Source: Clostridia bacterium (GTDB taxonomy: Bacteria; Bacillota; Clostridia; Christensenellales; UBA1242). From it: DNA of 64,000 bases. A program made the position numbers and the translations under genes. Below, piece by piece: positions 22,317 through 59,620 of this stretch. How positions within the stretch are numbered: position 1 is the first letter of the stretch; the number at the start of each line of letters is the position of its first letter. The notes below the pieces were generated by a model. It made no database searches, was not told the DNA's origin, and saw nothing but the letters and a program-made list of their open reading frames with translations. The stretch is taken from assembly GCA_045648025.1 (NCBI GenBank), contig JAZRNH010000045.1, positions 6,682 through 70,681 of the forward strand, written 5' to 3'.

Positions 22317-22323
22317 TTGATTT

Positions 22324-24597
22324 TTATCTTGTAGCAACTTTTCCTCTTGCTTTCATTACGAAAAGAATAATAACTGCTGCAATGATTGATGATAATACAA
22401 CAAGCACGATAGCAGACATATTCATTTGTTTTTTGAAAACAAATGTGGCTTCGGCTTCTGTTCCCATTGAGTCGACGGCTCTTACATGATAAGTGCCATA
22501 TTCGGTTCTATCAATTGTACTATTGCCATTTTCTGAATTTAACATAATGATTTCAGTAACACCATTATATGTTAAATAAACAGTGATATCACCAACACCT
22601 TGTATATTGAGATATACACCTGGTGGAACCTTTTCATCTTCTTTTGCAGGAATTGGTTCATATTCGTTAATTTCAACTCTCTTTACACCAAATTTAACTT
22701 GAAAACGGTTAATATAAGTTTTTTCAAGAGTGATAGGTGGTTCTTCTTCAGCTGAAGAAGAGAATTTAACGGTAAGGTTAATATTAGATTCGATTTTTGT
22801 TCTATAATCTTTTATGTCGGTTTTAAATGGTGTAGTTGCTTCAAATGCATTACCTTCATGTCTGAAAGTTGTTTTCGCATGTTTTATGATTGTAAACAAA
22901 TAATTAATTGGTTCGTCTGTTTCTTGTTTTGGATTGATGATGATTTGATAAAAAGCATCGGTTTCATATTCAAGAATGAAATCATTGTTGACCAATGCTG
23001 CTTGAATTTCTTCAACAGTATAAACCTTTTCAACGGTTTCAACATGGTCGATACCAAAGTCTGCCATTCTGACAGTAATATTGCTGATAACATCAGAAAG
23101 TAAGATATCATTGCCACCGGCATCTTTTCCAAAATCACCAAGGTTTTTAAATGTGATTCTAACGGTTTTGTTTACGGTTGAACTGCTAACAATATATTCA
23201 TCAGGAACAAGTTCAACCGGACCAGTTTCAACTTCTTCTTTTTCTGATTCTGAAGTTGTGCCGTCAGTATTTTCATCGGTTTCTGTTTCAACAGAAGTGT
23301 CAATTTCTGGCAATTTTTCTGTTAATGTTTGTGCAACAATATAAATGTTTGAAAATGGTGAAACCAACTCAGATTCTGATTTGATAAAGAATGATGTTGA
23401 ATAATAATTTGCATTATTCATACCAAGAAGGTGAGTTGAGTCATAAAGTTCAATTGAATATCTGCCAGTGTTTTTGAAAATAAATGAAAATTCATTAGTG
23501 TTTCCACTGCCAGCATCATAGGCAAGAACTTTTCTGTCAATCATTGGATTTTTTGTAACCGCATCATAAATAATTTCTTTGTTTGAATCAAGTTTAAATG
23601 AGGTTGCAAGTTGACGGCTATTATTATAAACAATTTCTTCTGTTACAGAAGAATATTCATCAATATAGTTAACAAATAGCAAGTTTTCGCCGTTATAAAC
23701 TTTTGAAAATAATTTATAGTTATAGACAAATCCGTTAAAGTTGATATTGAAGTAAAGTGGATTGCCTTCGGTGTAGTTGTTGTTTATGAAAGATACTTGA
23801 AGTTTGTCAAAAACATCATCTAAAGGAAGGGCTTTTTCTGGTGGATATGGGTTGCCGCCACCATCTGTTTTGTATGTGTTAAACATAACAATTGGTTCAG
23901 TTAAATTAAAGAAATTTACAACTGGCTTTTGGAAATTGATAACATATTCAATTGTTGTGTATATTGATTGTCTGATAGAAAATTCAAATGAACAACTGTC
24001 AGTTGCTTCGTTTGCAGAATTCACAAATCCAGTTTCTTTTGTTGTGTATGATTTTGTAAGGAAAATCTTAAGTGTTCCATCAACAGAGTCGTCATATTTA
24101 ACAAGTGAAGAGTTGTTGCTATCAACAATTGATATTGATTTTGATGGGTTTGTGAAGATGTATAAAATTGTATTTTCAATTTCCCAATAATATGTGATTC
24201 CGTTATATTCAAAACTAGGAGGGAGCTGTTCAGTAACTTCATCTTTTGTTAAAACGATTTCATCTTTAACTTCAAAAAAGTTAGTGATTGTGTTTGAATC
24301 ATTTAAGACTTTAATATTTGAAGCAAGTGGATTAAGAGTGATGGTTACCGATTTGTTTGTGATAACATAGGTAACTTCTTTTTTCTCTTCATCAACTATT
24401 GTTTGAAGTTTTTCACTATCAATTGGTTGACCTGCTTGTGATAAAGTTACATAACGAAAAGCATCAGCTTTGTATTCGATGTTACTAAAATCCGCTGATG
24501 ATGATTCGTCTGTTTTTGGCTGCATCAAAAAGCAACACAATGCAGCCACAGAAACGATTGATAATACAAAAATTAATATCTTTTTAAATTTTTTCAT
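22324..24597 (-). CDS. 757-aa surface protein with N-terminal signal/anchor and C-terminal TM anchor (candidate adhesin/outer component of the T4SS-like locus)
   Basis: N-terminal KKFKKILIFVLSIVSVAALCCF and C-terminal SAIVLVVLSSIIAAVIILFVMKARGK. Acidic Thr/Glu linker (TSVETETDENTDGTTSESEKEEVETGP) between two beta-rich halves. Ig-like strand YHVRAVDSMGTEAEATFVF. No LPXTG. Lies 43 nt downstream of virD4 with an AAGGAA RBS. Confidence 0.6.
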   Translation of the reverse strand: MKKFKKILIFVLSIVSVAALCCFLMQPKTDESSSADFSNIEYKADAFRYVTLSQAGQPIDSEKLQTIVDEEKKEVTYVITNKSVTITLNPLASNIKVLNDSNTITNFFEVKDEIVLTKDEVTEQLPPSFEYNGITYYWEIENTILYIFTNPSKSISIVDSNNSSLVKYDDSVDGTLKIFLTKSYTTKETGFVNSANEATDSCSFEFSIRQSIYTTIEYVINFQKPVVNFFNLTEPIVMFNTYKTDGGGNPYPPEKALPLDDVFDKLQVSFINNNYTEGNPLYFNINFNGFVYNYKLFSKVYNGENLLFVNYIDEYSSVTEEIVYNNSRQLATSFKLDSNKEIIYDAVTKNPMIDRKVLAYDAGSGNTNEFSFIFKNTGRYSIELYDSTHLLGMNNANYYSTSFFIKSESELVSPFSNIYIVAQTLTEKLPEIDTSVETETDENTDGTTSESEKEEVETGPVELVPDEYIVSSSTVNKTVRITFKNLGDFGKDAGGNDILLSDVISNITVRMADFGIDHVETVEKVYTVEEIQAALVNNDFILEYETDAFYQIIINPKQETDEPINYLFTIIKHAKTTFRHEGNAFEATTPFKTDIKDYRTKIESNINLTVKFSSSAEEEPPITLEKTYINRFQVKFGVKRVEINEYEPIPAKEDEKVPPGVYLNIQGVGDITVYLTYNGVTEIIMLNSENGNSTIDRTEYGTYHVRAVDSMGTEAEATFVFKKQMNMSAIVLVVLSSIIAAVIILFVMKARGKVATR

Positions 24598-24640
24598 TGA
24601 TAAATTTCCTTGAAAATTTTATTTAAAAATTAATAATAGA

Positions 24641-26605
24641 TTAGTCAGAGAAGTCATCATTATTAAGAACAATGCTGTTTCTTCTTCTAATATCATAATA
24701 AACTTCGCTTTCTTTAAATGTTCTTCCAGGAACAAATTCTGCAGGAACACAACCAATTTGATAAAGGTCTAATGTTTTGAAGTATGGTGTAACAATTGCC
24801 TTGCAAGGATATTGTTGGAAGTTGTTTGTAATGTTTTGACCAAGAGGAATCTTGTCAAGTTGTGAAGGGTGAATAAGTGGAACTTGTTGAAGGGAAGTGC
24901 TGGTTGAAGAAGTGCTTGATTCTTTGCCTTTTCCTTCGTTTTTGGTTTTTGAGTCAACTTCGATTGTGTGGTTTCCAAGTTCTTTTGAGAATTCTTCACG
25001 GGTTTTAAGGTCAGGGGTTCCATAGAAAAGTGTGGCACGGCATTGACCTCTAACGATTTCAGCAACTTCTTTGCCGTAAACATCGTCAAGCTGTGAGTAA
25101 GATTGGATAGCCATATTAAGGAAAATCCATCTAGATCTCGCAACGGTAATAATTCTGTTTAAGCCTTCAATTTTAGGCATATTCGCAAATTCGTCGAGGA
25201 TGTAGAAAAGTGGTCTTTTAAGGTGAGCCATTTTGTCGCTATTTACAAGTTCATTTTCTCTCGCTTTTTGAACGAATTCTTTATAAGATTGTGAAATACA
25301 AACAGATGCAAGTTTATATCTGGTTGCTCTTTCATCAGGAATTTTAATGAAGAAAGCTGTTGGCTTATCGTCAAATTCTGTAAATCTGATATCGTTTTCA
25401 GAAGTTAAATAACAGATACCGTTATCAGAGAAGATTGAAAGGTTTGTTGTAAGTGATGACATATAACCGTCACGAGTAACGGTTGCTTTTGTTTGAGTGA
25501 TGTTGGTTGAAAGTTCTTTTGATTTTGAAAGAGGATCTCTTCCAGAGAAATAATCTTTAACAACTTCATAGTCGTCATCTTTGTTCATTGCAATTTTGAA
25601 AGCATTGAAGAAGTTGTATTTTTCTCTTGTCATTCCAAGAGCTTCATTTTCACTATCTTCAAGCATCGCAATCATACAAGCAAGGAAGTAGTCTCTTGCA
25701 CCATCGGTCCATTGTTTGTTTTTTGGATCTGGGTCAGATGGAACGATAGCACTTGCGATATCGTTTAAACTTTCCATACAGTCATCTTTGATTTTTTGTT
25801 TTTCTACATCAACTTCAACCAAAGTTTCACGAAGGGTAGAGAAGGCTTTGCCCATAAATTCATACCATTCAGAACTTTTGATTTCGCCGCCCTTTAAAAG
25901 GTTTGGATAGTTTTTAATAGGGTCGTTTGTGTGTTTTAAGATTTCTTCTTCAAGATGAGCTCTCTTTTGCCATTGAAGATAGATGTTTTCAAGTGGATTC
26001 CATCTCTTACTAGCATAAGGTTGGGTGAGGTCAAGTTGCAAAACGACATAGCCTTGGTTTTTGAGTTTTAAGCTATGGTGTGCATAAATTTCGCCTTTAG
26101 GGTCAGTGATAAAGAGAGATGGTCTGTTTTTAAGCTCAGACAAAATTTGCATGGTTGGTTCAACCCAACATGCAGTTTTACCAGTACCAGAAGCTCCTAC
26201 AATCAAGACATGACAGGCAGGTGTGAAGTGAATATGTAAGTTTCTTCTTTTATATTCAAATCTAAAAGGAATACCTGTAATGCTTAAATTTTTAAGTTCA
26301 GAAAACATACAGTTAGTGAAATTTTTGTTAAGCTCTTTCATACTAGCAAAGTGTTGATTTTCCATCGCACTTTTACCTTTGAGTTTGATATCTTTATCCT
26401 TGTTGGTAAGTGAAATAACATAGAATAAAAACATTACACCAAAAATAATGAGAGCATAAGAAAGAGTTGTTGTGGAGGTGAGAGAAATTCCACCGCCATC
26501 AAGAAAGTAATTGAGTGCTACACCACCGGCAAGGGAGATGACAAGCATAAATAATGTTACAACTAAAAAACTTGTAAAACCACCAGATGATTTTTCTTCA
26601 GACAT
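24641..26605 (-). CDS. virD4: type IV coupling protein (VirD4/TraG family ATPase)
   Basis: Two N-terminal TM helices. Walker A VGASGTGKT (nt 26174-26197), FITDPKGE, Walker B FYILDEFANMP, and the RSRWIFLNMAIQSYSQLDDVYG block. All are typical of TraG/VirD4. Confidence 0.85.
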   Translation of the reverse strand: MSEEKSSGGFTSFLVVTLFMLVISLAGGVALNYFLDGGGISLTSTTTLSYALIIFGVMFLFYVISLTNKDKDIKLKGKSAMENQHFASMKELNKNFTNCMFSELKNLSITGIPFRFEYKRRNLHIHFTPACHVLIVGASGTGKTACWVEPTMQILSELKNRPSLFITDPKGEIYAHHSLKLKNQGYVVLQLDLTQPYASKRWNPLENIYLQWQKRAHLEEEILKHTNDPIKNYPNLLKGGEIKSSEWYEFMGKAFSTLRETLVEVDVEKQKIKDDCMESLNDIASAIVPSDPDPKNKQWTDGARDYFLACMIAMLEDSENEALGMTREKYNFFNAFKIAMNKDDDYEVVKDYFSGRDPLSKSKELSTNITQTKATVTRDGYMSSLTTNLSIFSDNGICYLTSENDIRFTEFDDKPTAFFIKIPDERATRYKLASVCISQSYKEFVQKARENELVNSDKMAHLKRPLFYILDEFANMPKIEGLNRIITVARSRWIFLNMAIQSYSQLDDVYGKEVAEIVRGQCRATLFYGTPDLKTREEFSKELGNHTIEVDSKTKNEGKGKESSTSSTSTSLQQVPLIHPSQLDKIPLGQNITNNFQQYPCKAIVTPYFKTLDLYQIGCVPAEFVPGRTFKESEVYYDIRRRNSIVLNNDDFSD

Positions 26606-26641
26606 AATAACTCCTTTTAAAAATACAATATATCAATTTGA

Positions 26642-26670
26642 ATTATAGCACAGCAATTTCAAATCTCCAA
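26642..26670 (-). promoter_or_regulatory. putative promoter of the virD4 operon
   Basis: On the minus strand: TTGGAG, 17-nt spacer, TGc-TATAAT (extended -10). About 35 nt upstream of the AAAGGAG RBS and ATG. Confidence 0.45.
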
Positions 26671-26849
26671 ACAAATAAAAATGATTTATAAAAGAAATAT
26701 TTATATTTATTATATATTTATAAAAATTTTGATAACTTTCAATAATGGTATAATAATGGCTAAATATTTGAAAATTTTACAAAATAAACGAAATTTTAAC
26801 CAAATGTAAAAATAAAATAAAAAAAATCTATTATTAGTGTAAAATTTGT

Positions 26850-26877
26850 TTGCAAAGTTTAAATTAATTGTGATAAT
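26850..26877 (+). promoter_or_regulatory. putative promoter of the first VirB2-like gene
   Basis: TTGCAA (26850-26855), 16-nt spacer, TGt-GATAAT (26872-26877). Confidence 0.4.
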
Positions 26878-26907
26878 ATTTGCTTATATAAGATTAGGTG
26901 GTTTGTT

Positions 26908-27222
26908 ATGATTGAAGCAATTAAACAACAATTATCAATGTTTTCATACTTGTCAGCGGGATCAGGTGACGAAGTTTTAAACCCTATTTATGAAGGTTTG
27001 TCTTTGGTTGGTCCTTATGCACTTTCGGTAGTTGCCGTTCTTAGTATCTTTTACGGTATCTTTTTGGGTGTTAAATATGCCCAAGCAGAAGATGAGGCAA
27101 CAAAAGCTAATATGCAAAAAACACTCATAAATTTCATTATTGGTGCGGTAACAGTCTGGGTTCTTTTGGCAGTTCTTTATGCAATTCGTGAACCTCTTGG
27201 CAGGTGGATTACCGCTGGTTAA
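26908..27222 (+). CDS. small two-TM hairpin membrane protein, VirB2/TrbC-pilin-like (paralogue 1)
   Basis: 104 aa. Two hydrophobic helices joined by the charged loop GVKYAQAEDEATKANMQKTL. AGGTGG RBS. Paralogous to 27393..27740. Confidence 0.5.
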   Translation: MIEAIKQQLSMFSYLSAGSGDEVLNPIYEGLSLVGPYALSVVAVLSIFYGIFLGVKYAQAEDEATKANMQKTLINFIIGAVTVWVLLAVLYAIREPLGRWITAG

Positions 27223-27318
27223 CTTTTGACTTAAATTGATTGAGTTAATTCAAATATTTTCCGAAATTTAGGCAAAATGAAAAAAAATAAAAAAATTGTA
27301 AAATTTGCTTTATTTTAT

Positions 27319-27347
27319 TTGCCAAATAAAAATTGGTGTGATACTAT
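27319..27347 (+). promoter_or_regulatory. putative promoter of the second VirB2-like gene
   Basis: TTGCCA (27319-27324), 17-nt spacer, TGa-TACTAT (27342-27347). Confidence 0.45.
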
Positions 27348-27392
27348 TAAGTCAGTCGATTAAGTAATTTTTAATTTAAAAAGGAGAAAATT

Positions 27393-27740
27393 ATGGAAAA
27401 ATTATTAAACATGGTTAGCTTTTTAGCAGAAGAATCTGAAATCGTAAGCGAAGCTTATGGTGCATTTATCAGAATCGTTAACATCGTTCTTCCAGTACTT
27501 ATGTCTATTCTTTTAGTTATCGGTATGTTCTATGGTATTCAACTTGGTGTTAAATATGCTAAAGCAGAAGAAGATGATGATAAGAAAAAAGCAAGAGGAC
27601 AACTTATCAATGTTATCGTTGGTATCCTTATTGCAATTCTCTTCGTAGCTATTGTTGAAATTGTATTGAACATGGACTTCGTTGCTAAATTATTCAGACA
27701 AGTTAAAGATACATACTCAGCTGCTACATCAGCATACTAA
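27393..27740 (+). CDS. small two-TM hairpin membrane protein, VirB2/TrbC-pilin-like (paralogue 2)
   Basis: 115 aa. Helix, then the loop GVKYAKAEEDDDKKKARGQL, then a second helix. AAAGGAGAA RBS. Codon usage looks highly expressed (ttc/atc/ggt/gct/ctt). Followed by two tandem terminators. Confidence 0.5.
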   Translation: MEKLLNMVSFLAEESEIVSEAYGAFIRIVNIVLPVLMSILLVIGMFYGIQLGVKYAKAEEDDDKKKARGQLINVIVGILIAILFVAIVEIVLNMDFVAKLFRQVKDTYSAATSAY

Positions 27741-27750
27741 TAAAAAAAAT

Positions 27751-27780
27751 AAAAACACGAAGCAATTCGTGTTTTTATTT
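27751..27780 (+). terminator. rho-independent terminator 1 after VirB2-like gene 2
   Basis: Stem AAAAACACGAA/TTCGTGTTTTT with GCAA loop and a T-run. Confidence 0.65.
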
Positions 27781-27805
27781 TGCAAAAAATTACATAATTT
27801 TTAAG

Positions 27806-27837
27806 AAAAACAGCCAGTGAATTTTGGCTGTTTTTTT
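27806..27837 (+). terminator. rho-independent terminator 2 (tandem)
   Basis: Stem AAAAACAGCCA/TGGCTGTTTTT followed by T7. Confidence 0.65.
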
Positions 27838-27907
27838 ATTTGTTTAAATTATATTTAAAAAGTTTGAAAAAAAATAAAAAATAATGTTACAAATTGAAGT
27901 TATTCGT

Positions 27908-27937
27908 TTGTGTATTTGATTCTTGCTATGTTATAAT
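27908..27937 (+). promoter_or_regulatory. putative promoter of the 4301-aa gene
   Basis: TTGTGT, 18-nt spacer, TGt-TATAAT (27932-27937). About 105 nt upstream of the ATG. Confidence 0.4.
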
Positions 27938-28044
27938 ATACTCGTTAAATTATATATATTATAAGTCGCTCTTAAATTTTAAAATTTTTACTAAAAACAA
28001 TTTGTTTTGCAAAAACTAAATTTAAACGACATTTTGGGGGAATT

Positions 28045-40950: not shown

Positions 40951-40985
40951 GTCAAACACCTAATTTTACTTAATTAATCAATAAA

Positions 40986-41013: not shown

Positions 41014-41075
41014 GGTTATTGATTTGCTAGAAATTTTTGTATGTTATATACTATAAATGAGGAGAAATTAAGACT

Positions 41076-43763: not shown

Positions 43764-43788
43764 AAACAATAGGAGAAAGACTAGAGTT

Positions 43789-49700: not shown

Positions 49701-52700
49701 TGATGATAGAAAAGCATCTAGTCCTGTTCCAGGAATTGGTGATATTGACAAAGTAAGTTTCTCATCATATTTCCAAATTAATGATTATTCAACTTGGATG
49801 CTTTCAGATTTTGTAATTTATTACATATTTAATGAAAGTCCAGAACAATTTAATATTGATGGAAATCTTGATTCAACAAAGAACTTCCAAGAACTTGTTA
49901 ATAAGGGATATTCTCCAGCTAAAAATTATAAATACTTCATTGAAGATGAATTTGGAAATTCAATCTTAAAAGATGTTATTTGGATTGGTATTGGAGAAAA
50001 AGATGATGGTATTGCTGTTGACAGAACATTATTCACAAAATATTATGCTCAACAACTTGCTAACATTCAATTCTTAGATAAAACCTCTGTTGATTATAAA
50101 ACTTATAATTATGATAAGGGTATTGAACTTTCAATGGATTTTGGTGCAAATCAAAAGTTTACAACACAATCTATCAAGCAGTTCTATACCACAAAGAATA
50201 CTGTTTTAAATGCAAATCAATTCACTTATGACAGTTATTATTATTATGATTTAGACAGTGGAAAGCTCACACAAACAGACAATAACCTTCTTAGTGTTAA
50301 TGCAAACTTGATGAGTAATATTGCAGATGGAAAGGCAACTGTTTCAGATGCTCTTAACATTGCACTTTCAGACGGCTTTATTATTAGTGAGCCATCAACA
50401 TGGACATGGCTTGACTATATTATTGTTTATGAATTTTCAAGAACAAATATAAGACATAACTATTTTGAAGGTATGGCTTTTGAAAATCTTAGAACAAAGA
50501 GTTATGTTCCTGTGTTTATTGATGGTTCTGAAATTGTTATTGAGCTTAACGGAAGATATTATGATTTATCCGTAATTAAGCATGACACAGCCGCAACAGA
50601 CAAACTTACTCAAATTAGAAATAGTTATAAACTTATGAACGACACAACTGTTAGCGATGCCGTTACATTAAAGGCAGATGGTGATAATGGATTTGATTTC
50701 AAGACATTATATCAACAATTTGAGTATAATGTTCAAAAGAGTGAATATTCATTAGATTATTCAAAAACACCAAACAGCATTTTATATGAATATGCTGATC
50801 CAACTGATCCTTATGCAGATCAAATTATGTATTATATGACACTTAACACAGATATCATTGATACATATAAGGTTAACATTGCATCTCTTAACACAAATGG
50901 TTTCTATGCATTCACCAACATTGTTAGAGAAGTTAGTTGGCCACAAAAATTAATGAATGACCTTCAAGTGTTATATCCAGATTTGAACTGGGCAACACTT
51001 ATTGCTACTGATGGTTGGCTTGATACTCTTGGAGAATTTACATCAGCACAAGCTTCTGGGGAATATGTTTCTGAGGGCAACTCAGCAAACATTACAGCTG
51101 CTGGTTTGGTTCTTTCAGAATTCTTTGTATCAGTTGCCAAAGAAATGGATCCATTTGCATCAGTTCATAGCTATGAATATCAACCAATATTTAGTGAATC
51201 AACAATCAAGGCATTAATGCTTGCTATGCTTGGTGAAGAACAATATTATGATTTATCAACACAAGCTTCAGTATTTATTGAAATGTTTAACAATATGTTC
51301 TTGCCAGTGCTTGAAGATATTGCAAAAGAGAGAGGAATTTCAATTGTTGATGGAAAAGTTGATAACTTCTATATCAGTGTTTATAAAGCATATCTTGCAA
51401 CTGTTCTTTTAGGTTCAGATATTGGCGAATATTTCTATAAGATTGCAACAAGAGTTTATGCTCAATATACAATCTTTGATTCACTTGCAGCTGCAAGTGG
51501 TGACTATGCTGCTTATATGGATTATATTAATTCATTAAGCAATCAAAATGGTGAAAAAGTAACATCGTTTATGTATTCATCATTCCACGAACTTGCTATT
51601 TATGAAAACAGCTTCTCTGGAAACAAAAACCCAACATTTACATATAACTTTGAATCTTCACTTGCATATTTCTATGGCAAAAACTTCACATACGGAAAAT
51701 TGGCAGGGGAAGGCTATGATTTATCGGGTGTTCAAGATAAGACAAGCAATGATGCTATTGTTACTGCAAGAGATGTCAAAACAATTATGAAAAAGGCATC
51801 AAACTTTAACAACCTCAACAAACGTATTGATGACACTTATAGAGATATTTATAGCAAGGGTGGAAGAGTTAGTGATACTAATGTAAGTGGTATTTATTGC
51901 TTTATGTTTGATGTTTATTGGTCAATTCATCAAGTTGTTCAAGGCAAAAATCAAAACGATCCAGTTTACTTAGAGTATTATCGTGAATATATTATGGGTG
52001 AAGTAAAGAGATGGCAAACCGTTGCTAACGAAACAATTGACGGAACATCATCTTATATTCCAGATAACTCAAAATATAAATTAGCACTTAATATCAACAA
52101 AATCTTTGCTATGACATCTGTTGTTGGTCTTTACCTTCCAGATGGAAAGAGTATTGATGTTGAAGAAGAAGGCAGTTTATTTGATAAAATTAATTCAGCA
52201 TTAGATAGTGCTTCAATTACAAATGTAGGTGTTATTACTGACACATTTAATAACACAACAGCTTATACAGAATTCAAGAGAGCTTATAACAATGTATTTG
52301 GTCAAGGCCAAATTATGAACATCTCTGACATTATGGATGCTTCAAATGAAGGTAATACCGACAAATGGCATCAATTAGTTCAAATGAGAGATGATCTTGG
52401 AATCTTGGTTGAAGAATTAAACCAAGTTGCAAGTATGTCTGGTGAAGGCTATGTTAAAGGTGACTCAACAAGAGGTTACCGTGCACCAAGATATGACAAA
52501 GAAAGATATACTGATGCTTATAATGATTTGCAATCTTTGTATGGTTATATTGATACATACATTTCAAACCAAATTATTTTGGATAAGATCACAAAATCAA
52601 GTATCACATTTACTCTTGCTCAATTTGGTAAAAACTATGTAACTGATGGTTATACATTCTCATTCGAAAATAAGTCTTACACAATGAAGGCAACAGCTTC

Positions 52701-55494
52701 TGCTGAAAGACTTGCTGAATATGTTTATGGTGGTGCATTCCTTGTTAAATATGGTGTATCTCCAAAATATACAAATGACAAGTATCACGGATTTGTTGAA
52801 AGTTATAAGGTTTATGATTCAAATTCTGGTTCAACAAAAACTAGACTTAAAGTTTGGACAGAACTTAGAACATTTGTTTCTGAACTTGCAAACTATACAG
52901 CAAAATTATATTACTTAAGTAATATGAATGACCTTTCTAAAAATATTAGTGATGGCATTTTATTAACAGATACCATTTATCAAGGAAACTCTGATGATGG
53001 CGGCACACTTGTTTCAAAAACATTAGAGCAAATGATTATTGAATATTTGCTCACTAGTGAAATTGAAGCAGATACATTCTTGAGATTATCATTTGGTGAC
53101 ACTGTTGCAACACTTGATGCATTAAGTTGTCCAAATGATGAATTTAAAGCACTTGCATATTATCTTGAAGGTAATTATGCTGGTGATGACGGTGTTGTTG
53201 AAAAAACTGGATATGGTGACTACATTATTGATATTGGCGAAGGTGATGCAGCTGTTAGATTTACACTTACAGGTGCAAATAAAAAGGCATACATCAAAAA
53301 CTATTGGGATTATGTTGGAAGTTCAGCATATAACTCAAATGGTTATTATAATGATGGTTCAAACAATGGTGTTGATAGATTACACCTTATCTTCAAAAAG
53401 ATAATTTCATATTTGATTGTTACTGAAGAGGCAGAAGAATCAACTTCTGAAAAAGCAATTAATCTTGATAATATCACATTTAAAGAATTTAGAAAGATTT
53501 TAATGCAAGCTCTTAGTGATTATCAAAAGAACCCAACAGAAAATGATATTCAAAATTCAAACAGATATATCACATTATTCAACTTAATTAGTTCACAATT
53601 TGCTTACACATATAGTTATACAAATGATGATGGTGAAACTATTCATGTTCAAGCTGGAACAACTGTTAACCCATTATTTGTTTCAAAAGTGAATCCAGAT
53701 ACAGGATCAGCTATTGATAAAAACATTTCTGCAAAAACTGCTGGAAGAGTAAATTATGTTTATGAAAATCCATCAGGTATTAAAGAAATAAGACCTCTTT
53801 ATGGTGAATTTTCTATTGATATTCCAACAAGAGATATCATTTTAACATTAGCTGGAATTGAAAACCGTCCAATTGAAGAACTTGTTGGTCTTGAATATGA
53901 AAGCCTTTATGATAAAGGTGGAAACTATGACGAAGAAGATGGTGATACATTCATTATTTGTTCATATGACGAAAGTGAAGGAAAGTATTATCCAGTTCTT
54001 GGAAGAAATACCGGTTGGAGTGTTTCTGATAAAGGTTTTGATTATATCGACAACATCGGCATTGATATTAAAACATCTTATTATGCACCAGATGGACATT
54101 ATCCAATCATTGCAAAAGGTGTAATCGATGCTTCGGGTTATCCAACCGCAATCAAACAGGTTGACGGAAAGATTTTATTCTATAGAACAAATATCACAAC
54201 TGCACAAGATGTCGGCGAAAGTGCTTTGGGTCAAACAAGAAGCGGTGGTGAAGTTACAACCATTGGATATACAAAATATACCACTGGTTTCTGGTCTGCT
54301 ATCGGAAACAGTGATAAAGTTGCTATGTTCACTGGAAACTCTTCAATTGACTCAATGGCAAATTCTGATTTCCAAGTTAATTTCATTCAAACGACACAGC
54401 AATATTCAATCACAAATGCTGAAGATTTTGAATCAATTGCAGTTCTTGAAGAATTTTCTGCATTCTATACACTTGAATCAAGACAATTGTTCTTATTCTT
54501 GCTTGGTTTCTCAGTGTTACTTCCAATGCTCTTTAGTGCATCTGCAACGGTTCTTAGAAGAATTCTAGATCTGATATTCTTGGTGTTGATGGGTCCAATG
54601 GCGATAGCTTCGCTTTCACTTGGAGCTGATCAAAATCCAGATGGAAAGAGTAAGATTTTTGATACCTGGAAAACCTATATGACTCAGACACTGCTTCATG
54701 TGTTTGGTTATATCATTGCATTTAATGTATATTCAATTTTGATGTCAACAATTCTCAAGATGGATCTTGTTGGTCAAAGCACAATGGATGCAATTTATAG
54801 AATCGGTGGCTTATCACAATTTGTTACTGAAAATAGTATTAATGCACTTTTAAGATATGTTTACATTATTGCTGCGGCTGCTGCAATTAAAACATCAGCC
54901 GACCTTCTTGTTAACATTGTTACTGCTGGAAAAGTTACCAATGCATTCCAAACACCAATGGGCGGAGATGTTATGGCTGACATTAAGAAAATGGCAGAAC
55001 AACTCAAAGATGCATTTGATGCGGTTAAAGGTATTGCTAGTGGACAGGCTGCAACAATGCTTAAAGACTTTGCTATGGAAACGGCTATGAAAGCGATTCC
55101 TGGTGGAGCACTTATTGGCAAAGCGGTCAATGCTGGTCAAAACCTGATTTCACAACAAAAAGGTAAAGCCTTAGAAAAATCGGCAATTTCAAACGGAGTT
55201 TCACCAGAAGTTGCTAAGAGTATGTCAAAACAATTTGTTGACAACGAAATGAAACAAAGACAAGCCAAGAGAGAGCAACGAGCTGCAAATGCTAACCAAT
55301 TCTCTAAGACATTTGGAGGCGATGCAATGTTTAAGGCACAAGAAAACGGTGCACTTACAAAGCGACAACAAGCCGCAAAGAAAGAGGATGCAGCAGCAAA
55401 GAAAAAAGCTGGAAAAGCAGGAAAAGCTGCAAAAGGAAGCAAGGGCAGTAAAGGTGGCTCATCAAAGGGCGGAAAGAAAAAAGGTAAAAAATAA
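43789..55494 (+). CDS. giant (3901 aa) polytopic membrane protein, paralogue of the 4301-aa protein. Has a ~3350-aa Tyr/Asn/Asp/Thr-rich modular ectodomain and a short Lys/Gly-rich tail.
   Basis: Uninterrupted 11,706-nt ORF starting 25 nt after the virB4 stop, with an AGGAGA RBS. The N-terminal 3-helix module and the C-proximal TM module (aa ~3565-3720) align by eye with the other two proteins. Confidence 0.6.
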   Translation: MVRLFTFLISIFEFEQGSSFLSIPLWIKFIGRGIANLFSQIMNFILKMAWVIIKFMLGVMEAFEYMINSFIGIDTSVQDMYDFVYNSENGIKLLDVLSTSLKAMMALSIVFLVIFTIFAMIKQEYNNAFSGGKKGNDKKPIITGMFKKMLYIVLLPITMMFIITGVNSILTSFSRAMTGGEDVTIAAQVLSTSTYDSNKYRYYAQENKRIPIIIKAYDPNQYAPDENELLAEKIKSVAVQDVLKTTVSSMSSKNLLTFNESVQYKNNKLSNSVEYGQGEWYETFICTAEQYQIMADFIDYAQKHNLKYYIKPTDSEDIDWRYVDSAVFNASDISLKINYRDANDMNGDGKKTDSYTVEFSTSFEVTSPISNAMETILALLGVDSKNEKYSENIFKTMERDENYVNVVNWANEKVLIKLSNDFDLDDPSNWTRMDQLIIYEYYHFSSNNTFGKYSIADLVKGVELEASLLVYREYYPVGNAYSEERTIPCVKINGSYYRIWQDPEDQKTDKYGNIYYELEDSLTEEDTLNFLNNDYSLIQEVGTETGKLKLSGNFEANDPTTWEYYDQIIVYEFYKDLTSNNKLYSYNFNQFKEGIEVPVYQITKRKFSDKTVADRVDDETGYYLEINGIYYEATKKTTGSSSDPDYGKWFLSDATIDYLIEANPFSDTYYYNYEINLDGVTDGEGEFNDIYGDKYGISTSLESTKKATNFIVDRDTTTRYVDFTPLDESDTNFLKYSNFSLMLSKNFDHNEVDTWTFKDYFIFYLYINYNQIAGRLGLESLKLTGVSGEIGTIELEGTSATKYVYKVKYGSHILTTADIYCEHCGRFYTEAQLVDSKCPTCDIRIDDQAGRTLDLCLYLDIDGIRKISNMLINNTLDSTYIKQHNYTDKGIGNTLFIDVDSNDLVVADTEVREFKLSEGFSQLYPNNWTVLDYILYSFSNEGVINQIPKDEAGIESYKYSAVVYKIFDGEVLKDIMYKFGSSTRGNEQYLSLENVKALKDANGDSLNYRDVDDFLELNFLDYVAKAKGMHSNEIISNQDGIINNLYNDLIEYVYSTDKIMEEIVRQKAFHIGANEYDLYSSVLSYTYSNPSVKIDDLSTWTLMDALIYIATGTVSLTYTAPVYRHLNKNYFIVGNYAVDITTSTSPFKGTLSSANKITSRNSTFDGSGPLADYVTANCADYIFDEAYFTGKKVKKYSNASFTYKNEDTAYTTFDAIYEYLMGTAIALDGTVSLDAFIEGENVYLKTTKSGVNKYILVSEAYNDYISVEKSGKFTLSSTAKIATKEPTSYVAFDNDLDTTTFNADNLHIKPLDALIYFDTGVIEKKSLNVYKYVNKDGNEKKYVYSGKGYIEIKDNNEVNIINSSLDNLTNSDHELLTLLYSTYYQQYYKTAVDNILSDAVVKNATFEYVRPVDGGGIPKDVTITRVSPFALIFSKLGLIDLTLSRDTVTGKIVRTARKTYFYYEGTTATSNEVTKIYVDVTDIGTVGYKPGDETNLFLFDNNSSVYEMVLRYMLMSNSDGGTGYLNQNTYATAYKTFDAELEPYFEDNYLAADAVNTTLSNTSGFTLTAATSWTNFNTLYYYLTNSSNISTMQNIYTDKDGYMYVKIQKNSDVTYVKVGKDGSYYTNTLFDHYTFASAAYQLEDASTGNYSPLGIIAYKQTAIKNGTIQLITYAENFCPTCVRELSSGQVNADKECTTCHTKVIPTQFHFIKNNYYDEFICVYNLDNASLRNATSYDNYYYNFRGDTDANGNSIVKDWTIFDYLIAYINAYSKEYKVSQNIQIYGSNAYISVDGSDNGKFINLSKLGILSEDDVNDIYDSVGYDKLASRPSGYSGSYNSSAVEALYNEKYASLVKTSTQLDLANINVYNPKASETTIKYIKSEEVTAFDIIYSKLKGVGFAANNSEIEVSTFVDITSGTKYILIEKDTTDYYVAVGEDLYFGSANPDMIELEVNLNPVFDYVSTGAYDVFDDDRKASSPVPGIGDIDKVSFSSYFQINDYSTWMLSDFVIYYIFNESPEQFNIDGNLDSTKNFQELVNKGYSPAKNYKYFIEDEFGNSILKDVIWIGIGEKDDGIAVDRTLFTKYYAQQLANIQFLDKTSVDYKTYNYDKGIELSMDFGANQKFTTQSIKQFYTTKNTVLNANQFTYDSYYYYDLDSGKLTQTDNNLLSVNANLMSNIADGKATVSDALNIALSDGFIISEPSTWTWLDYIIVYEFSRTNIRHNYFEGMAFENLRTKSYVPVFIDGSEIVIELNGRYYDLSVIKHDTAATDKLTQIRNSYKLMNDTTVSDAVTLKADGDNGFDFKTLYQQFEYNVQKSEYSLDYSKTPNSILYEYADPTDPYADQIMYYMTLNTDIIDTYKVNIASLNTNGFYAFTNIVREVSWPQKLMNDLQVLYPDLNWATLIATDGWLDTLGEFTSAQASGEYVSEGNSANITAAGLVLSEFFVSVAKEMDPFASVHSYEYQPIFSESTIKALMLAMLGEEQYYDLSTQASVFIEMFNNMFLPVLEDIAKERGISIVDGKVDNFYISVYKAYLATVLLGSDIGEYFYKIATRVYAQYTIFDSLAAASGDYAAYMDYINSLSNQNGEKVTSFMYSSFHELAIYENSFSGNKNPTFTYNFESSLAYFYGKNFTYGKLAGEGYDLSGVQDKTSNDAIVTARDVKTIMKKASNFNNLNKRIDDTYRDIYSKGGRVSDTNVSGIYCFMFDVYWSIHQVVQGKNQNDPVYLEYYREYIMGEVKRWQTVANETIDGTSSYIPDNSKYKLALNINKIFAMTSVVGLYLPDGKSIDVEEEGSLFDKINSALDSASITNVGVITDTFNNTTAYTEFKRAYNNVFGQGQIMNISDIMDASNEGNTDKWHQLVQMRDDLGILVEELNQVASMSGEGYVKGDSTRGYRAPRYDKERYTDAYNDLQSLYGYIDTYISNQIILDKITKSSITFTLAQFGKNYVTDGYTFSFENKSYTMKATASAERLAEYVYGGAFLVKYGVSPKYTNDKYHGFVESYKVYDSNSGSTKTRLKVWTELRTFVSELANYTAKLYYLSNMNDLSKNISDGILLTDTIYQGNSDDGGTLVSKTLEQMIIEYLLTSEIEADTFLRLSFGDTVATLDALSCPNDEFKALAYYLEGNYAGDDGVVEKTGYGDYIIDIGEGDAAVRFTLTGANKKAYIKNYWDYVGSSAYNSNGYYNDGSNNGVDRLHLIFKKIISYLIVTEEAEESTSEKAINLDNITFKEFRKILMQALSDYQKNPTENDIQNSNRYITLFNLISSQFAYTYSYTNDDGETIHVQAGTTVNPLFVSKVNPDTGSAIDKNISAKTAGRVNYVYENPSGIKEIRPLYGEFSIDIPTRDIILTLAGIENRPIEELVGLEYESLYDKGGNYDEEDGDTFIICSYDESEGKYYPVLGRNTGWSVSDKGFDYIDNIGIDIKTSYYAPDGHYPIIAKGVIDASGYPTAIKQVDGKILFYRTNITTAQDVGESALGQTRSGGEVTTIGYTKYTTGFWSAIGNSDKVAMFTGNSSIDSMANSDFQVNFIQTTQQYSITNAEDFESIAVLEEFSAFYTLESRQLFLFLLGFSVLLPMLFSASATVLRRILDLIFLVLMGPMAIASLSLGADQNPDGKSKIFDTWKTYMTQTLLHVFGYIIAFNVYSILMSTILKMDLVGQSTMDAIYRIGGLSQFVTENSINALLRYVYIIAAAAAIKTSADLLVNIVTAGKVTNAFQTPMGGDVMADIKKMAEQLKDAFDAVKGIASGQAATMLKDFAMETAMKAIPGGALIGKAVNAGQNLISQQKGKALEKSAISNGVSPEVAKSMSKQFVDNEMKQRQAKREQRAANANQFSKTFGGDAMFKAQENGALTKRQQAAKKEDAAAKKKAGKAGKAAKGSKGSKGGSSKGGKKKGKK
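45061..50439 (+). repeat. ten or more divergent copies of a protein-level module marked by [LS]S..F...[DE]P[ST].W[TE]..D..I.Y.[FY]
   Basis: Motif copies at 45061, 45457, 46036, 46558, 47071, 47701, 48499, 49051, 49780 and 50386. Examples: DDPSNWTRMDQLIIYEYY, NDPTTWEYYDQIIVYEFY, SEPSTWTWLDYIIVYEFS. Spacing is 132-266 aa. Confidence 0.75.
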
Positions 55495-55520
55495 AACTTA
55501 ACGAACAGGAGAGAAAATAG

Positions 55521-58500
55521 ATGGGGTTAATTAATATGGCGACAAAAATTCCAACTTTAATGATGAAGTTATCTTCATCTATTTTCCCGACCGGTTCTTC
55601 AAGTTTCTTGGCGGCAGCGGGAACGGATTCGTTCTTGTCGGTGGTATTCAACTTTTTAGCCAAAATTTTCTATTTTGCGGCTAAATGGATGTTATATCTG
55701 CTTGATATTTTGTATGCATATATAAAAGAACTTTGCGGTCTTAATATGAGTTATGAGTCTTTAGAAAAAATGGTTTCAAAAGAATCTGACTTTGTATTTA
55801 ATCTTTTGATTACATCAAGAGAAACAATTACTCCAATTATTAAAAGTTTAATAGGTCTTGTTATTGCACTGGTTATTTTCTTTGCAATTTTAGCGGTTAT
55901 TAAAACCACTTTCAATTCAATAAAACAAGGTGCAACAGCAGACATTAAGGGTGTATTTAGAAACACATTTAAAGCATTTATCTTGCTTGTTATTACACCA
56001 ATGCTCGCAATTGTTGGTATTGTTGCTGCAAACACAATCTTAAAGACATTATATAATGCAACAAACCCTTCAGGTTCGACAAGCATAAGCACTCAGTTGT
56101 TCTCAGCTTCTGCAACATCTGCTAGTAGTTATCGAATATATGCTCAAAATGGTTTAAAAATTCCGATAACTTATGATTTTACCGAACAAGAAACAATTTT
56201 AGAATATTATCAAAATCATCCACTTACTGATGATTTTAGAGAATATGTTGTTTCCGACAAAAACCTTATATATACAAATTATAAAAGGTTGCAAGACGGA
56301 AATTTTGATGAATTTATATATCTTAACGATGCCATTTCTTCTGGAACAGGTGTAACAGAAAGTTATGTAACAAGATATTATCAAGCTTATGATAGACATG
56401 CTGAATCTGTTAAACCAGTTTCTCCATATCATGCATATAAGAGAATTCAGGCTTATAGATCAGAATATCTTGTTATGGCAGATGTTATTGATTATTGTAT
56501 AAATTCAGGCAATACTCTTTATTTAAAAACAATACAAGAAGTTCTTGATTCTATAGCTGCTGTGCCAGATGACAGTGTGTTTGAATCATTTGTAACATTG
56601 TTTGATATTGAATTTTTAACAGCAGATTTAAAAACTTATGTTTTGAGTTCGATTGTAACAACTAATGCAGATGATGTAAACAGCACATACAACTCGTACA
56701 AACAAATCTATAATCACGATAGTTGGGAAATTATTAGATTTAACAGCACATATTATGATGCAAACGAAAGCACTGAGCCTACAAGAAAAATGGTTATTCA
56801 ATATAACCATGTTAAAGATGCTACAGATGAACTTGATGGTGCAAAGTATATAGTTGCTAGTGAACAAATTAAAACCGTTTATGATGCTTATTCAAGCAGA
56901 GATAAACAATATCCTTATTTCTATCCAATAACTCTTGGTTATGGAACTGGAAGTGGTGGTGCATTTGATACAGACTTTATTCAAATGGGTCAAATTGTTG
57001 CTGCAAAAGGTATTTTCAGCGAAGGAAAATATCCAACAGCAATTAGACAAAGTGATGACAAAGCTGAACTTCAATTTTATAGAGAGACAATCTCACAAGT
57101 AAATGTGGGTGATGAAAGTGGTATGGCTGGAGGCTCTCTTGCAACTGAAGAAAAGAAGAGTGGTATTGCTGGATTCTTCCAAAAACTTAAAGCAATGTTT
57201 AGCCCCAAAGTTAATTTAAGTGTTGACGAAAATGCGGTTATAACGGCTTATGGTATTGAAGAAGTTCAAGTCAATATTTTAACGGCTGGTAAACTTAATA
57301 TTAGCTATATGTTCTCAGATGCAATATCAAACGGTCTTGGCGGTATCATGACTGCTGCTTCAAGAGCAGTGTCTGGTCAAGACAATGTTGAACAAATTGG
57401 TATCTTTGGATTAAACTTAGATAACTTATTCATACCAAACAAACTTAATATATTAGTTCTTATTGTTGGTGCATTTGTAATGATTAAAATCACTTTCCAA
57501 GCGGTTTTTGCACTTATTAATAGGTCTTATGAACTGTTCTTAACGATTATAGTTTATCCAACGGCCTGTGCAACAATTCCTCTTGATGAAAATGGTTTCC
57601 AACAGTGGACGATAACTTATACCCAGCGACTGTTCTCAACATACGGTCTGATTCTGGGTCTGAACTTCGTTATTATGTTGTTCCCAATAATCAGTGAACT
57701 TGAAGTGTTTACGGCGGGTGAAATTGCACTTTCTAAACCTTTGATGAGATTTAGAAATCTGTTCTCACTTGGTGGACTGATAACGATTAGTTTGGAATTT
57801 TTGGCAAGTTTCTTAAACCTTGTTGTTGTAATTTTATTTGAACTTGTTGCATTTACACTTCTTGAAACAATTCCAGAAACAATTTCAAAAATCACAGGTG
57901 TTTCTGCAGCTCAAGGCTTCGACCCAATTGAAGCTATGGGTAAGGTTTTGAATGTTATTATGGGTGTTGTTAAAACCGTCGGCTCAAGTGGTTCGGGTGT
58001 AATTTTAGGTATATTCGATGTCCTTGGTGCATTTGTAGGTTCTAAAAAGTCAAGAGATAAAGCAAAGCAAAGAATTAAGCAAAAGGTTAAAGATAAAACT
58101 GACAAGCTTAAAAAAGGTGCGAAATCAATGATTCCTGGTAAAGGTCTTGTTGATTCAATAAAAGATAAGCAGCATGTAAAACAACAAATGGGTGCTCAAA
58201 AAGAAGCTATGAACAAACTTAAAGATGCTATGGATAACAAAGATAGTGATCCAAAAGCTGTTCAAGATGCTATGAGCAATTTGTTACAAGCTCAACAAAA
58301 AGCAACTGCTGCAATTAATGACCCTTCTGGTTCAAGAGCTGCGGCTGAATCTGAAAAGAAACAAAATGAAGAGGCGGGTCTTGATGAAGATGGCGAAGTT
58401 TCTTCAAGAGAAGGTGAAGAGAACGATGACCAAGAAGGAGCAGATCTTTCACATAGATCAAAGAGTTCTTTGAAGAAAGAAAAGAAGAGAGCGAAGGCTG

Positions 58501-59585
58501 TCGTTAAAAACCTTAAGAAGAAAGAAAAATCTGGTGGAGTGTTGTCTGCAACTGAACAAGCTGCATTAAAGAGACAAGAAGGTATATTGAAAAATACTAC
58601 AAATGCTCTCAAACAGCAAAAGACAGATAGCAAAGGCGACAAACAAGCTAAAAGGACTATTAGGCAGCTCACAAAAGCACAAGGAAAAGGTCAATTAACA
58701 CAAACACAAACCCAAGAACTTGCTGCTGCTCAACAAACTCTTGCTGATAGTAAAACAAGAAAGCAAACCCATGCTGCTACCAGAAAGAAAGAAAAAGATG
58801 ATATTAAGCAAAAACATGCAGATGCTAAAGAAGATGCAAAGAAAGCAGAAAGATTAAGAGCATTTAGCCATATGGATATGGGTTCAAGAATGGCTCAAAA
58901 AGGCTATTTGAAAGAGATGGAAAAGGAACAAACCAAACTTCAACAACAATTAAATGAAAGCGGTTTGAATCTCAATTTGGCTCAACTTACTCAAGATCAA
59001 TATGATAAAATTGGCACAGGTTTCTATACCGCTGCTCAAGAAGAAATTATTAAAAAATATGTTGCAAAAGAACAAGAAAAGAATGCCCTTATTGATATGA
59101 CTGGTGAAGATTATCTTAAAGCAAAGGCTCAAAGAAAAGCCAATTATGCTGCTTACAAGAATCAAGATTTAGCTGGAAAACATGGTCTTAATGTTGTAAA
59201 AACCATTCAAAAGAAGGCTCTCAACAAAAAACTTAATGGAAATTATATGCAAAATAAAAATGAACTTGCTGCGGTTTCGCAACAACTTCAAAACTTTGGA
59301 AATGTTGATTCTTCAAACATTAGAGCATATAATCAGCTTAAACAAAAACAAGCAGAGCTTCAAGCAAGACTTGATACCGCTCAAAAGTGGAATGATAGAA
59401 ATGCAATGTCTCCTGCACAAAGAAAAGCTGCTGATAAAAATCAACAACTTAGAGATAAGTGGGAAAGAGAAGCTATGCTTGAACTTAGGGCAACTAACCA
59501 AGCAATGACAAGAGAAAATCTTGACAAAGTTATGGCTAGAAAGAGACAAGAAGCAATTAATAAGCGAATAAAGAGAAGAAGATAA
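55521..59585 (+). CDS. 1354-aa polytopic membrane protein, smallest paralogue (VirB6/TrbL-like by architecture) with a ~500-aa Lys/Gln/Ala-rich basic tail
   Basis: Starts 26 nt after the previous stop, with a GGAGAG RBS. N-terminal 3-helix module, ~460-aa ectodomain, TM module with ACATIPLDENG (57570-57590), then a coiled-coil-like basic tail ending KRIKRRR. Confidence 0.6.
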   Translation: MGLINMATKIPTLMMKLSSSIFPTGSSSFLAAAGTDSFLSVVFNFLAKIFYFAAKWMLYLLDILYAYIKELCGLNMSYESLEKMVSKESDFVFNLLITSRETITPIIKSLIGLVIALVIFFAILAVIKTTFNSIKQGATADIKGVFRNTFKAFILLVITPMLAIVGIVAANTILKTLYNATNPSGSTSISTQLFSASATSASSYRIYAQNGLKIPITYDFTEQETILEYYQNHPLTDDFREYVVSDKNLIYTNYKRLQDGNFDEFIYLNDAISSGTGVTESYVTRYYQAYDRHAESVKPVSPYHAYKRIQAYRSEYLVMADVIDYCINSGNTLYLKTIQEVLDSIAAVPDDSVFESFVTLFDIEFLTADLKTYVLSSIVTTNADDVNSTYNSYKQIYNHDSWEIIRFNSTYYDANESTEPTRKMVIQYNHVKDATDELDGAKYIVASEQIKTVYDAYSSRDKQYPYFYPITLGYGTGSGGAFDTDFIQMGQIVAAKGIFSEGKYPTAIRQSDDKAELQFYRETISQVNVGDESGMAGGSLATEEKKSGIAGFFQKLKAMFSPKVNLSVDENAVITAYGIEEVQVNILTAGKLNISYMFSDAISNGLGGIMTAASRAVSGQDNVEQIGIFGLNLDNLFIPNKLNILVLIVGAFVMIKITFQAVFALINRSYELFLTIIVYPTACATIPLDENGFQQWTITYTQRLFSTYGLILGLNFVIMLFPIISELEVFTAGEIALSKPLMRFRNLFSLGGLITISLEFLASFLNLVVVILFELVAFTLLETIPETISKITGVSAAQGFDPIEAMGKVLNVIMGVVKTVGSSGSGVILGIFDVLGAFVGSKKSRDKAKQRIKQKVKDKTDKLKKGAKSMIPGKGLVDSIKDKQHVKQQMGAQKEAMNKLKDAMDNKDSDPKAVQDAMSNLLQAQQKATAAINDPSGSRAAAESEKKQNEEAGLDEDGEVSSREGEENDDQEGADLSHRSKSSLKKEKKRAKAVVKNLKKKEKSGGVLSATEQAALKRQEGILKNTTNALKQQKTDSKGDKQAKRTIRQLTKAQGKGQLTQTQTQELAAAQQTLADSKTRKQTHAATRKKEKDDIKQKHADAKEDAKKAERLRAFSHMDMGSRMAQKGYLKEMEKEQTKLQQQLNESGLNLNLAQLTQDQYDKIGTGFYTAAQEEIIKKYVAKEQEKNALIDMTGEDYLKAKAQRKANYAAYKNQDLAGKHGLNVVKTIQKKALNKKLNGNYMQNKNELAAVSQQLQNFGNVDSSNIRAYNQLKQKQAELQARLDTAQKWNDRNAMSPAQRKAADKNQQLRDKWEREAMLELRATNQAMTRENLDKVMARKRQEAINKRIKRRR

Positions 59586-59620
59586 AACTTATATTTCTTC
59601 AAAATTTTGCAAAATATAAA

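Follow-up and report, generated by a model that had tools for sequence, protein, structure and literature searches.

In this study, we analysed a gene cluster for a type IV secretion system (T4SS) at positions 22324–59585 of a 64,000-nt stretch of DNA from a Clostridia bacterium (contig JAZRNH010000045.1, positions 6,682 to 70,681; hereafter the window). The cluster encodes a complete channel module of the type known from mycoplasma integrative and conjugative elements (MICE), comprising a VirD4-type coupling protein, a VirB4 ATPase, three VirB6-like cores carried by giant membrane proteins, hairpin proteins and a surface protein, and this module is chromosomally fixed and has been kept by selection throughout a deep gut lineage. 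We favour, with a probability of roughly 75%, the reading that it is a vertically inherited, chromosomally fixed minimal T4SS of the monoderm, Mycoplasma-ICE-like kind, which is not self-transmissible. Since the channel protein has been triplicated and enlarged, up to 7,300 amino acids (aa), the system looks like a permanent organelle of the cell rather than a mobile element. A first-pass annotation, made from the DNA letters without database searches, had likewise proposed a domesticated machine rather than a conjugative element, which is supported by the fixed locus, the conservation of the ATPases and the lack of a close plasmid copy in the plasmid database searched.

All eight open reading frames (ORFs) of that annotation were recovered upon re-calling, with their positions and sizes unchanged, and the three giant genes sum to 28,677 nt or 44.8% of the window, as it had calculated. 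The giants comprise proteins of 4301 aa (28045–40950), 3901 aa (43789–55494) and 1354 aa (55521–59585), all on the plus strand, which were characterised by BLASTP, NCBIfam profiles and hydropathy, the last showing two separate TM clusters in each giant, together with AlphaFold2 (AF2) models for parts of the two smaller ones. All-against-all BLASTP (1e-14 to 1e-30) showed that they are paralogous, as had been claimed, but only over about 380 aa per protein, the remainder being unrelated between the three. The similarity is limited to two blocks, namely the N-terminal ~210 aa with three transmembrane (TM) helices and a TM module of ~170 aa, located at aa 1145–1320, 3555–3730 and 630–800 of the 4301-, 3901- and 1354-aa protein, respectively. 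The N-terminal module of the 4301-aa protein aligns to positions 9–179 of the 322-position NCBIfam family MMCAP2_0566 ('conjugal transfer protein', E=1e-8), while in all three giants the second TM module covers positions 179–318 (or 186–318) of that family, with E-values from 1.6e-10 to 1.6e-14. The second module additionally matches the family ICE_Mbov_0396_TM, and both halves match the pLS20_p028 family of conjugation TM proteins in colinear order, all of these matches lying below the curated cutoffs (75 bits versus 90). In Mollicutes ICEs, the CDS16 proteins are regarded as filling the VirB6-like role in the minimal T4SS (PMC12857230). Because the two modules together match the two halves of a ~320-aa protein of the MICE CDS16 type, the giants can be considered extended VirB6-like proteins, and profile comparison points to three paralogues of such a membrane protein. 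The earlier proposal of enlarged VirB6-like paralogues is supported for the core by colinear albeit sub-cutoff matches to MMCAP2_0566 and pLS20_p028.

From these alignments, the ~320-aa ancestral core appears to have been split after its third TM helix by an insertion in each giant and to have gained a tail. The insertion is ~390 aa long in the 1354-aa, ~930 aa in the 4301-aa and ~3,150 aa in the 3901-aa protein, and the tails amount to ~550, ~3,000 and ~170 aa in the same order. Hydropathy profiles and the AF2 model both place three TM helices before and three after the insertion, which would render the insertion extracellular and the tail cytoplasmic. The N-terminal modules span aa 1–233 (three TM helices), 1–212 and 1–245 of the 4301-, 3901- and 1354-aa protein, and the predicted ectodomains span aa ~234–1144, ~213–3554 and 246–629. 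The tail of the 4301-aa protein is Ala/Lys/Glu-rich and predicted to be cytoplasmic, with its C-terminal ~800 aa being conserved, while the 3901-aa protein ends in a short Lys-rich tail and the 1354-aa protein in a Lys/Gln-rich one. A juxtamembrane motif, PGGxLxxKAVxAG, is common to the 4301- and 3901-aa proteins and directly follows the second TM module (~32095–32140, aa ~1351, and ~55069–55110, aa ~3761, respectively); the ATPases might dock there. The tail of the 4301-aa protein additionally contains five tandem repeats of ~95 aa (aa 3100–3530, 37342–38634, plus strand), each with a Gly-rich hydrophobic segment, GLAATAGILTVASGGTLIPALLA, in a region which is not conserved in relatives. This stretch is long enough for a membrane hairpin, within a tail that is otherwise predicted to be cytoplasmic.

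Outside the TM modules, the ectodomains and tails gave no sequence match in Pfam, NCBIfam, PHROGs or the PDB. The giants as a whole are without any Pfam match and without a PDB sequence match, and no well-characterised family outside of T4SSs was found for them in these searches, which answers a reservation of the first-pass annotation. In the ectodomain of the 3901-aa protein, a novel module (core [ST]W[TE]xxD[YQ][IL]IxY) recurs in eight or more divergent copies, and conserved islands are located at aa 200–600, 2400–2600 (~60% identity), 2900–3100 and 3200–3500. With family alignments, we built AF2 models for aa 1–860 of the 1354-aa and aa 2350–3549 of the 3901-aa protein. The former reached a predicted local distance difference test score (pLDDT) of 62 overall and 80–90 over about aa 200–530, the latter 68 overall and mostly 70–93 over about aa 2440–3300 (model positions ~90–950). 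Foldseek comparison of both models with the PDB and BFVD returned nothing at E<0.04, the best values being 0.36, 0.07 and 0.05.

The sheer amount of surface sequence brings up the possibility that the giants are adhesins or wall-spanning fibres, which the ATPases only insert and assemble, so that nothing is transferred to other cells. About 45% of the coding capacity is devoted to ectodomains and tails, a novel module is repeated in the largest ectodomain, and the surface parts evolve fast, all of which would suit such an organelle. However, the ectodomains are insertions in a polytopic channel-type protein and not passengers behind a signal peptide, the cytoplasmic tails would be left unexplained, and VirD4-type coupling proteins are, as is generally held, substrate receptors in all studied systems (PMC12857230). 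We therefore regard pure surface assembly as unlikely and retain the reading of a chromosomally fixed translocation channel.

The enlarged architecture is not restricted to the window. When 1.84 billion representative proteins were searched with a profile of the second TM module, 1,443 of them reached E<=1e-3, and for 84 the value was E<=1e-30. The top 150 matches are nearly all extended, with lengths of 860–7,309 aa and the module at positions ~550–3,700, and the extended family members fall into the same three positional classes as in the window. Orthologues of the 4301-aa protein range from 2,200 to 7,309 aa, the 78 orthologue clusters of the 3901-aa protein from 2,181 to 4,315 aa, and the full-length members among the 37 clusters of the 1354-aa protein from 1,260 to 1,404 aa. 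The 7,309-aa protein (L041:10001-31930) occupies the corresponding chromosomal locus in a relative and is orthologous to the 4301-aa protein. Its length coincides with the lower limit of giants of 7,309–7,704 aa that are carried, together with a cryptic VirB6, by the 'Hodor' gut megaplasmids (bioRxiv 10.64898/2026.02.21.707213); an assignment to these megaplasmids was rejected, the context being that of a chromosomal T4SS gene. Two further proteins (P0305, P0298), whose second TM module is small or N-terminal, were considered as possible unexpanded ancestors and proved uninformative, as they stem from short contigs with apparently fragmented gene calls.

The two ATPases tie the cluster to T4SSs most firmly, and all six motifs quoted for them in the first-pass annotation could be recovered from the translations. 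The VirD4-type coupling protein (654 aa, 24641–26605, minus strand), with the Walker A motif GASGTGKT, matches Pfam T4SS-DNA_transf (1e-43), TraG-D_C and TrwB_AAD_bind and exceeds the cutoff of the NCBIfam CD1115 family (252.7 versus 250 bits). The VirB4 ATPase (895 aa, 41076–43763, plus strand) matches Pfam P-loop_TraG (8e-19), AAA_10 and DUF87, and over its full length the NCBIfam family VirB4_plasma, 'Mbov_0397 family ICE element conjugal transfer ATPase' (594 bits versus an equivalog cutoff of 590). From its NCBIfam matches to the Mollicutes and CD1110 families, it could tentatively be placed in the MPF_FATA class. Hydropathy predicts that both ATPases begin with two TM helices, which constitute a VirB3-like region in VirB4, and that each of the small proteins forms a two-helix hairpin. 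Of these, the 104-aa protein (26908–27222, plus strand), VirB2/VirB3-like from Pfam, NCBIfam and hydropathy, matches Pfam T4SS_pilin (25.5 bits) and the pilin-like NCBIfam family Mbov_0395, both just below threshold. Its 115-aa paralogue (27393–27740, plus strand; 35% identical) reaches 36.4 bits with Mbov_0395 against a cutoff of 40. The channel module consisting of MICE CDS5, CDS15, CDS16 and CDS17 is thus present. Restricting T4SS signatures to the two ATPases, as had been done, goes too far: CDS17/VirB4 and the type IV coupling protein alone pass curated cutoffs, but the hairpin proteins and both TM modules of the giants match MICE families below them.

The 757-aa surface protein (22324–24597, minus strand) shows an N-terminal signal or anchor and a C-terminal TM anchor by hydropathy and gave no sequence match in Pfam, NCBIfam, PHROGs or the PDB. 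It evolves fast, with 27–37% identity and lengths of 584–754 aa in relatives. In position and function it is an analogue of the MICE surface protein CDS14 (PMC6030558), with no detectable homology between the two. Its N-terminus (…VAALCC…) is not a canonical lipobox. No cluster protein matched a VirB8-like part or a VirB1-like wall hydrolase in Pfam, NCBIfam or the PDB, in line with the first-pass annotation, and neither of the two partial AF2 models showed a fold match.

Vertical inheritance is indicated by the chromosomal setting. Profile searches assigned housekeeping families on either side of the cluster, as had been noted before: holB, PSP1, TatD, ksgA, ComEC, holA, rpsT and murI to the left, lspA, rluD, tig and clpP to the right. 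Searching one genome per GTDB species, we found relatives of VirB4 in 32 species, all of them uncultured 'Clostridia bacterium' metagenome-assembled genomes (MAGs) from goat, sheep, deer, buffalo, mouse and human gut. In 24 of the 32, both giants flank VirB4 as in the window, with identities of 55–92% for VirB4 and 25–50% for the giants, and all three paralogue types are kept even where VirB4 is only 61–64% identical (2,599, 2,046 and 1,222 aa in L016). Context was looked up on contigs of 66–562 kb from gut and rumen MAGs. To the left, relatives display the order ComEC-holA-(190 aa)-M28-rpsT-murI-(757-like)-VirD4, followed by the pilins, a giant and VirB4, and to the right a giant-(1354-like)-lspA-rluD-two small genes-tig-clpP-clpX-engB and further on mraZ-rsmH-PBP. 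All relatives examined carry the block, and wherever the flanks are visible they hold the same genes. In three relatives, VirD4 is 86, 76 and 68% identical, compared to 77, 68 and 57% for RpsT, 62, 55 and 45% for HolA and 45, 47 and 42% for MurI; VirD4 is hence better conserved than the adjacent ribosomal protein S20 (RpsT), and its identity falls in step with the housekeeping genes, as vertical descent predicts. Compared with a 96–97% identical strain, the ratio of non-synonymous to synonymous substitution rates (dN/dS) amounts to 0.07 for the 1354-aa and 0.13 for the 3901-aa gene, so the giants are fast-evolving yet under purifying selection. Open frames of ~4,000 codons in DNA of 30% GC would not be expected by chance either, since stops should make up ~8% of codons. 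In public annotation, the proteins appear only as 'DUF87 domain-containing protein', 'type IV secretory system conjugative DNA transfer family protein' or 'hypothetical protein'.

These data bear directly on the possibility that the cluster is an ordinary ICE, or the decaying remnant of one, integrated between murI and lspA. Genes of this T4SS type have so far been described only on mobile elements, and the GC content, ~30% throughout the window, rises to 0.35–0.41 in places and thus slightly above the flanks. The rise, however, falls on the stretch that codes for the Ala/Gly-rich tail of the 4301-aa protein, the locus and its flanks are kept where housekeeping proteins are only 42–57% identical, and ORFs of 4,000–7,300 codons are intact at the low dN/dS values given above. 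Relaxase, integrase, DDE transposase, partition and replication families were absent from the scanned ORFs of the window in Pfam and NCBIfam searches, and neither the CDS22 DDE transposase nor the CDS1/CDSG backbone of MICE was detected in the window or flanks. Border repeats were not found either, the longest common words of 12–13 nt being at chance level (shuffle mean 11.8, maximum 14). Among the 72,556 plasmids of PLSDB no close copy occurs: all VirB4 matches stay below 60% identity, and the best are from Spiroplasma at 26–32%, the nearest at 27%. The first-pass annotation, which had reported the lack of mobility genes and of flanking direct repeats and had named near-identical plasmid copies as a finding that would speak for an ICE, is borne out on these points within the window and PLSDB. 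An integrated ICE is consequently very improbable, and the chromosomally fixed, vertically inherited system remains preferred.

A less easily dismissed alternative is a chromosome-encoded conjugation apparatus which still moves DNA, i.e. a domesticated 'mating' apparatus for chromosomal segments whose relaxase, or an equivalent of it, is located elsewhere or not needed. Conjugative elements (MICE, Spiroplasma plasmids and clostridial conjugative transposons with the CD1115/CD1110 families) harbour the nearest known relatives of both the ATPases and the VirB6-like core, VirD4 is retained and highly conserved, and MICE, for which no relaxase has been identified, still mediate chromosomal transfer (PMC6030558, PMC12857230). 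Against this, precomputed Pfam assignments of the flanking genes revealed no relaxase, single-stranded DNA-binding protein (SSB), partition gene or recombinase within 10 kb of the cluster in relatives, and none is found in the 64-kb window, while ATPase conservation above that of S20 exceeds the expectation for an accessory sex function. We consider continued DNA transfer a minor but real possibility and continue with the reading of a fixed, not self-transmissible channel.

We propose a model in which VirB4, VirD4 and the three VirB6-like cores would assemble into a translocon in the membrane. The ectodomains of the giants and the anchored 757-aa protein would span the cell wall and contact the partner surface, thereby replacing the roles of VirB8, VirB1 and adhesins of other Gram-positive systems, while the hairpin proteins might build a short pilus or stalk. 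VirD4 would feed a cytoplasmic substrate, either protein or DNA, into the channel. Slow-evolving motors and fast-evolving surface parts suggest a conserved engine whose contact surfaces are specific to the partner. If DNA is the substrate, the system would exchange chromosomal segments in the manner of mycoplasma chromosomal transfer; if it is protein, the system would deliver effectors or reflect reliance on a partner, as in Patescibacteria. It is a far-reaching and doubtful extension of this model that the lineage depends on its T4SS as a core, quasi-essential cell-cell interface, in which the giant VirB6 ectodomains act as wall-spanning conduit and partner-recognition surface. The single indirect hint at essentiality is that the ATPases are better conserved than RpsT and HolA. 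If true, Bacillota would gain their first counterpart to the epibiont T4SS of Patescibacteria, and a new architectural class of T4SS would be defined, with VirB6 itself building the extracellular part.

Several points weigh against the favoured reading. The profile matches behind the VirB6-like assignment of the giants reach 75 bits against a cutoff of 90, and Pfam TrbL/VirB6 did not match them, so that the assignment builds on profile similarity, colinearity, gene position and topology. Direct pairwise comparison with a Spiroplasma Mbov_0396 protein was not significant, the similarity holding at the profile level, and the TM regions of the AF2 model reach a pLDDT of only 50–65. As no VirB8-like or VirB1-like part was found, the crossing of the wall is something we infer, and with ectodomain models that lack a structural match a role in adhesion or contact can only be proposed. 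A relaxase or oriT elsewhere in the genome would be compatible with the data. Finally, all genomes compared are MAGs, and the reading is drawn entirely from sequence.

Regarding the remaining features of the locus, the two operons diverge from a promoter region at 26606–26907, between VirD4 and the first hairpin gene, which contains an extended −10 promoter-like site on the plus strand (TTGCAA-N16-TG-GATAAT, 26850–26877) that is partly conserved in relatives. A bidirectional terminator-like hairpin (22289–22318) closes the minus-strand operon of VirD4 and the 757-aa protein and separates it from murI. A strong terminator-like hairpin on the plus strand (27804–27837) separates the 115-aa pilin-like gene from that of the 4301-aa giant, which fits a higher expression level of the hairpin proteins. 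Terminator-like sites are enriched in the region 22000–28200, with 10 found and 2.4 expected. At the other end, lspA, coding for the lipoprotein signal peptidase, follows the 1354-aa gene on the same strand after a gap of 98 nt (59586–60136), and this adjacency is kept across the relatives examined. The left part of the window contains a block of holB-yaaT(PSP1)-methyltransferase-TatD-ksgA (1747–7508), which corresponds to the origin-proximal block of Bacillus, and the GC skew is positive over the entire window, in which dnaA is absent. Block and skew together suggest that the T4SS may lie near oriC, as reported for the T4SSs of Patescibacteria. Among the flanking ORFs, those of 495, 249, 146 and 181 aa are without a Pfam or NCBIfam match (including 7635–9122, 10143–11343 and 209–754, all on the plus strand). 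A second, distant group of VirB4 proteins with 40–45% identity was observed in other gut Clostridia MAGs (L025-L032), without VirB6-like modules. At the only locus of this group that was scanned (L030, 9998–15788), VirB4 resides amid the housekeeping genes DegV, YchF and HflX, and within the group it is followed by a single-TM protein of more than 3,333 aa (L026, 9995–22673) or by proteins of ~890 aa. This group may represent another domesticated VirB4 system.

Among known systems, the T4SSs of MICE (ICEA, ICEB, ICEHo) and of Spiroplasma plasmids come closest, sharing the minimal part list and gene order (PMC12857230, PMC6813540). A CDS15-like hairpin, the CDS16-type VirB6-like protein, CDS17 VirB4, CDS5 VirD4 and a surface protein have their counterparts here, the order hairpin, VirB6-like, VirB4 equals CDS15-16-17 and that of Spiroplasma plasmids, where the VirB6-like protein measures 347 aa, and like MICE the cluster is without a recognisable VirB1 or VirB8. 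Reported MICE sizes are 525–562 aa for CDS14, 95–121 for CDS15, 357–400 for CDS16, ~930 for CDS17 and ~1,430–1,520 for CDS19 (PMC6813540). In contrast to the single VirB6-like protein of 350–400 aa in MICE, the cluster features three of 1,354–4,301 aa, reaching 7,309 aa in relatives. It also differs in its chromosomally fixed locus, without the DDE transposase CDS22, CDS1, CDSG and SSB, in a host with a cell wall (murI, PBP) and the standard genetic code, in a VirB4 only 27% identical to the nearest Spiroplasma protein and in a 757-aa protein that is no detectable homologue of CDS14. The cluster is best described as descending from the same stock as the MICE T4SS and working like it, while it lacks the mobility traits of ICEs and MICE.

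In its genomic standing, the cluster resembles the chromosomal T4SS of Patescibacteria, which is essential for epibiotic growth of Southlakia epibionticum and is mostly found without an associated relaxase (PMC12102498). Both are lineage-wide, chromosomal T4SSs of monoderms, related to Gram-positive conjugation systems, which lack a relaxase in the vicinity and feature paralogous VirB2-like pilins (PMC12102498, PMC12857230). The first-pass annotation was not aware of an equivalent of the enlarged VirB6 paralogues in minimal Gram-positive-type T4SSs; we found no description of the giant-VirB6 architecture in the Clostridia literature, but a domesticated monoderm T4SS as such is known from Patescibacteria (PMC12102498). 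The present cluster differs from it by residing in Bacillota/Clostridia, by the lack of detected VirB1, VirB8 and TrsD homologues and by its giant, triplicated VirB6-like proteins. In the layout of the channel protein, it differs from two further groups as well. The rvh T4SS of Rickettsiales, chromosomal and non-conjugative in bacteria with reduced genomes, features several tandem VirB6 paralogues with large hydrophilic extensions. This system is a diderm P-type with VirB7/9/10/11 and unrelated to the cluster in sequence, and VirB6 enlargement here reaches larger sizes, mainly through insertion within the TM core plus a tail. Proteins of the pLS20 p028, ConG, TcpH and PrgH types, like the giants, add hydrophilic domains, either extracellular or C-terminal, to a polytopic core, but are 350–830 aa long, single-copy and plasmid- or ICE-borne.

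The 'extended VirB6' concept (PMC12857230) would accordingly be widened to proteins of 4,000–7,300 aa in triplicate, and the insertion point in the channel protein, pinned to a few residues, offers a handle for structural and evolutionary work. Non-conjugative Gram-positive T4SSs are a long-standing open question, for which only the 89K island of S. suis and Patescibacteria are listed (PMC12857230). The cluster described herein constitutes a candidate for a third, situated within Bacillota and forming a fixed part of the core genome in a lineage that is widespread in gut and rumen, and it ties the enigmatic apparatus of Mycoplasma ICEs to a walled relative with the standard genetic code.

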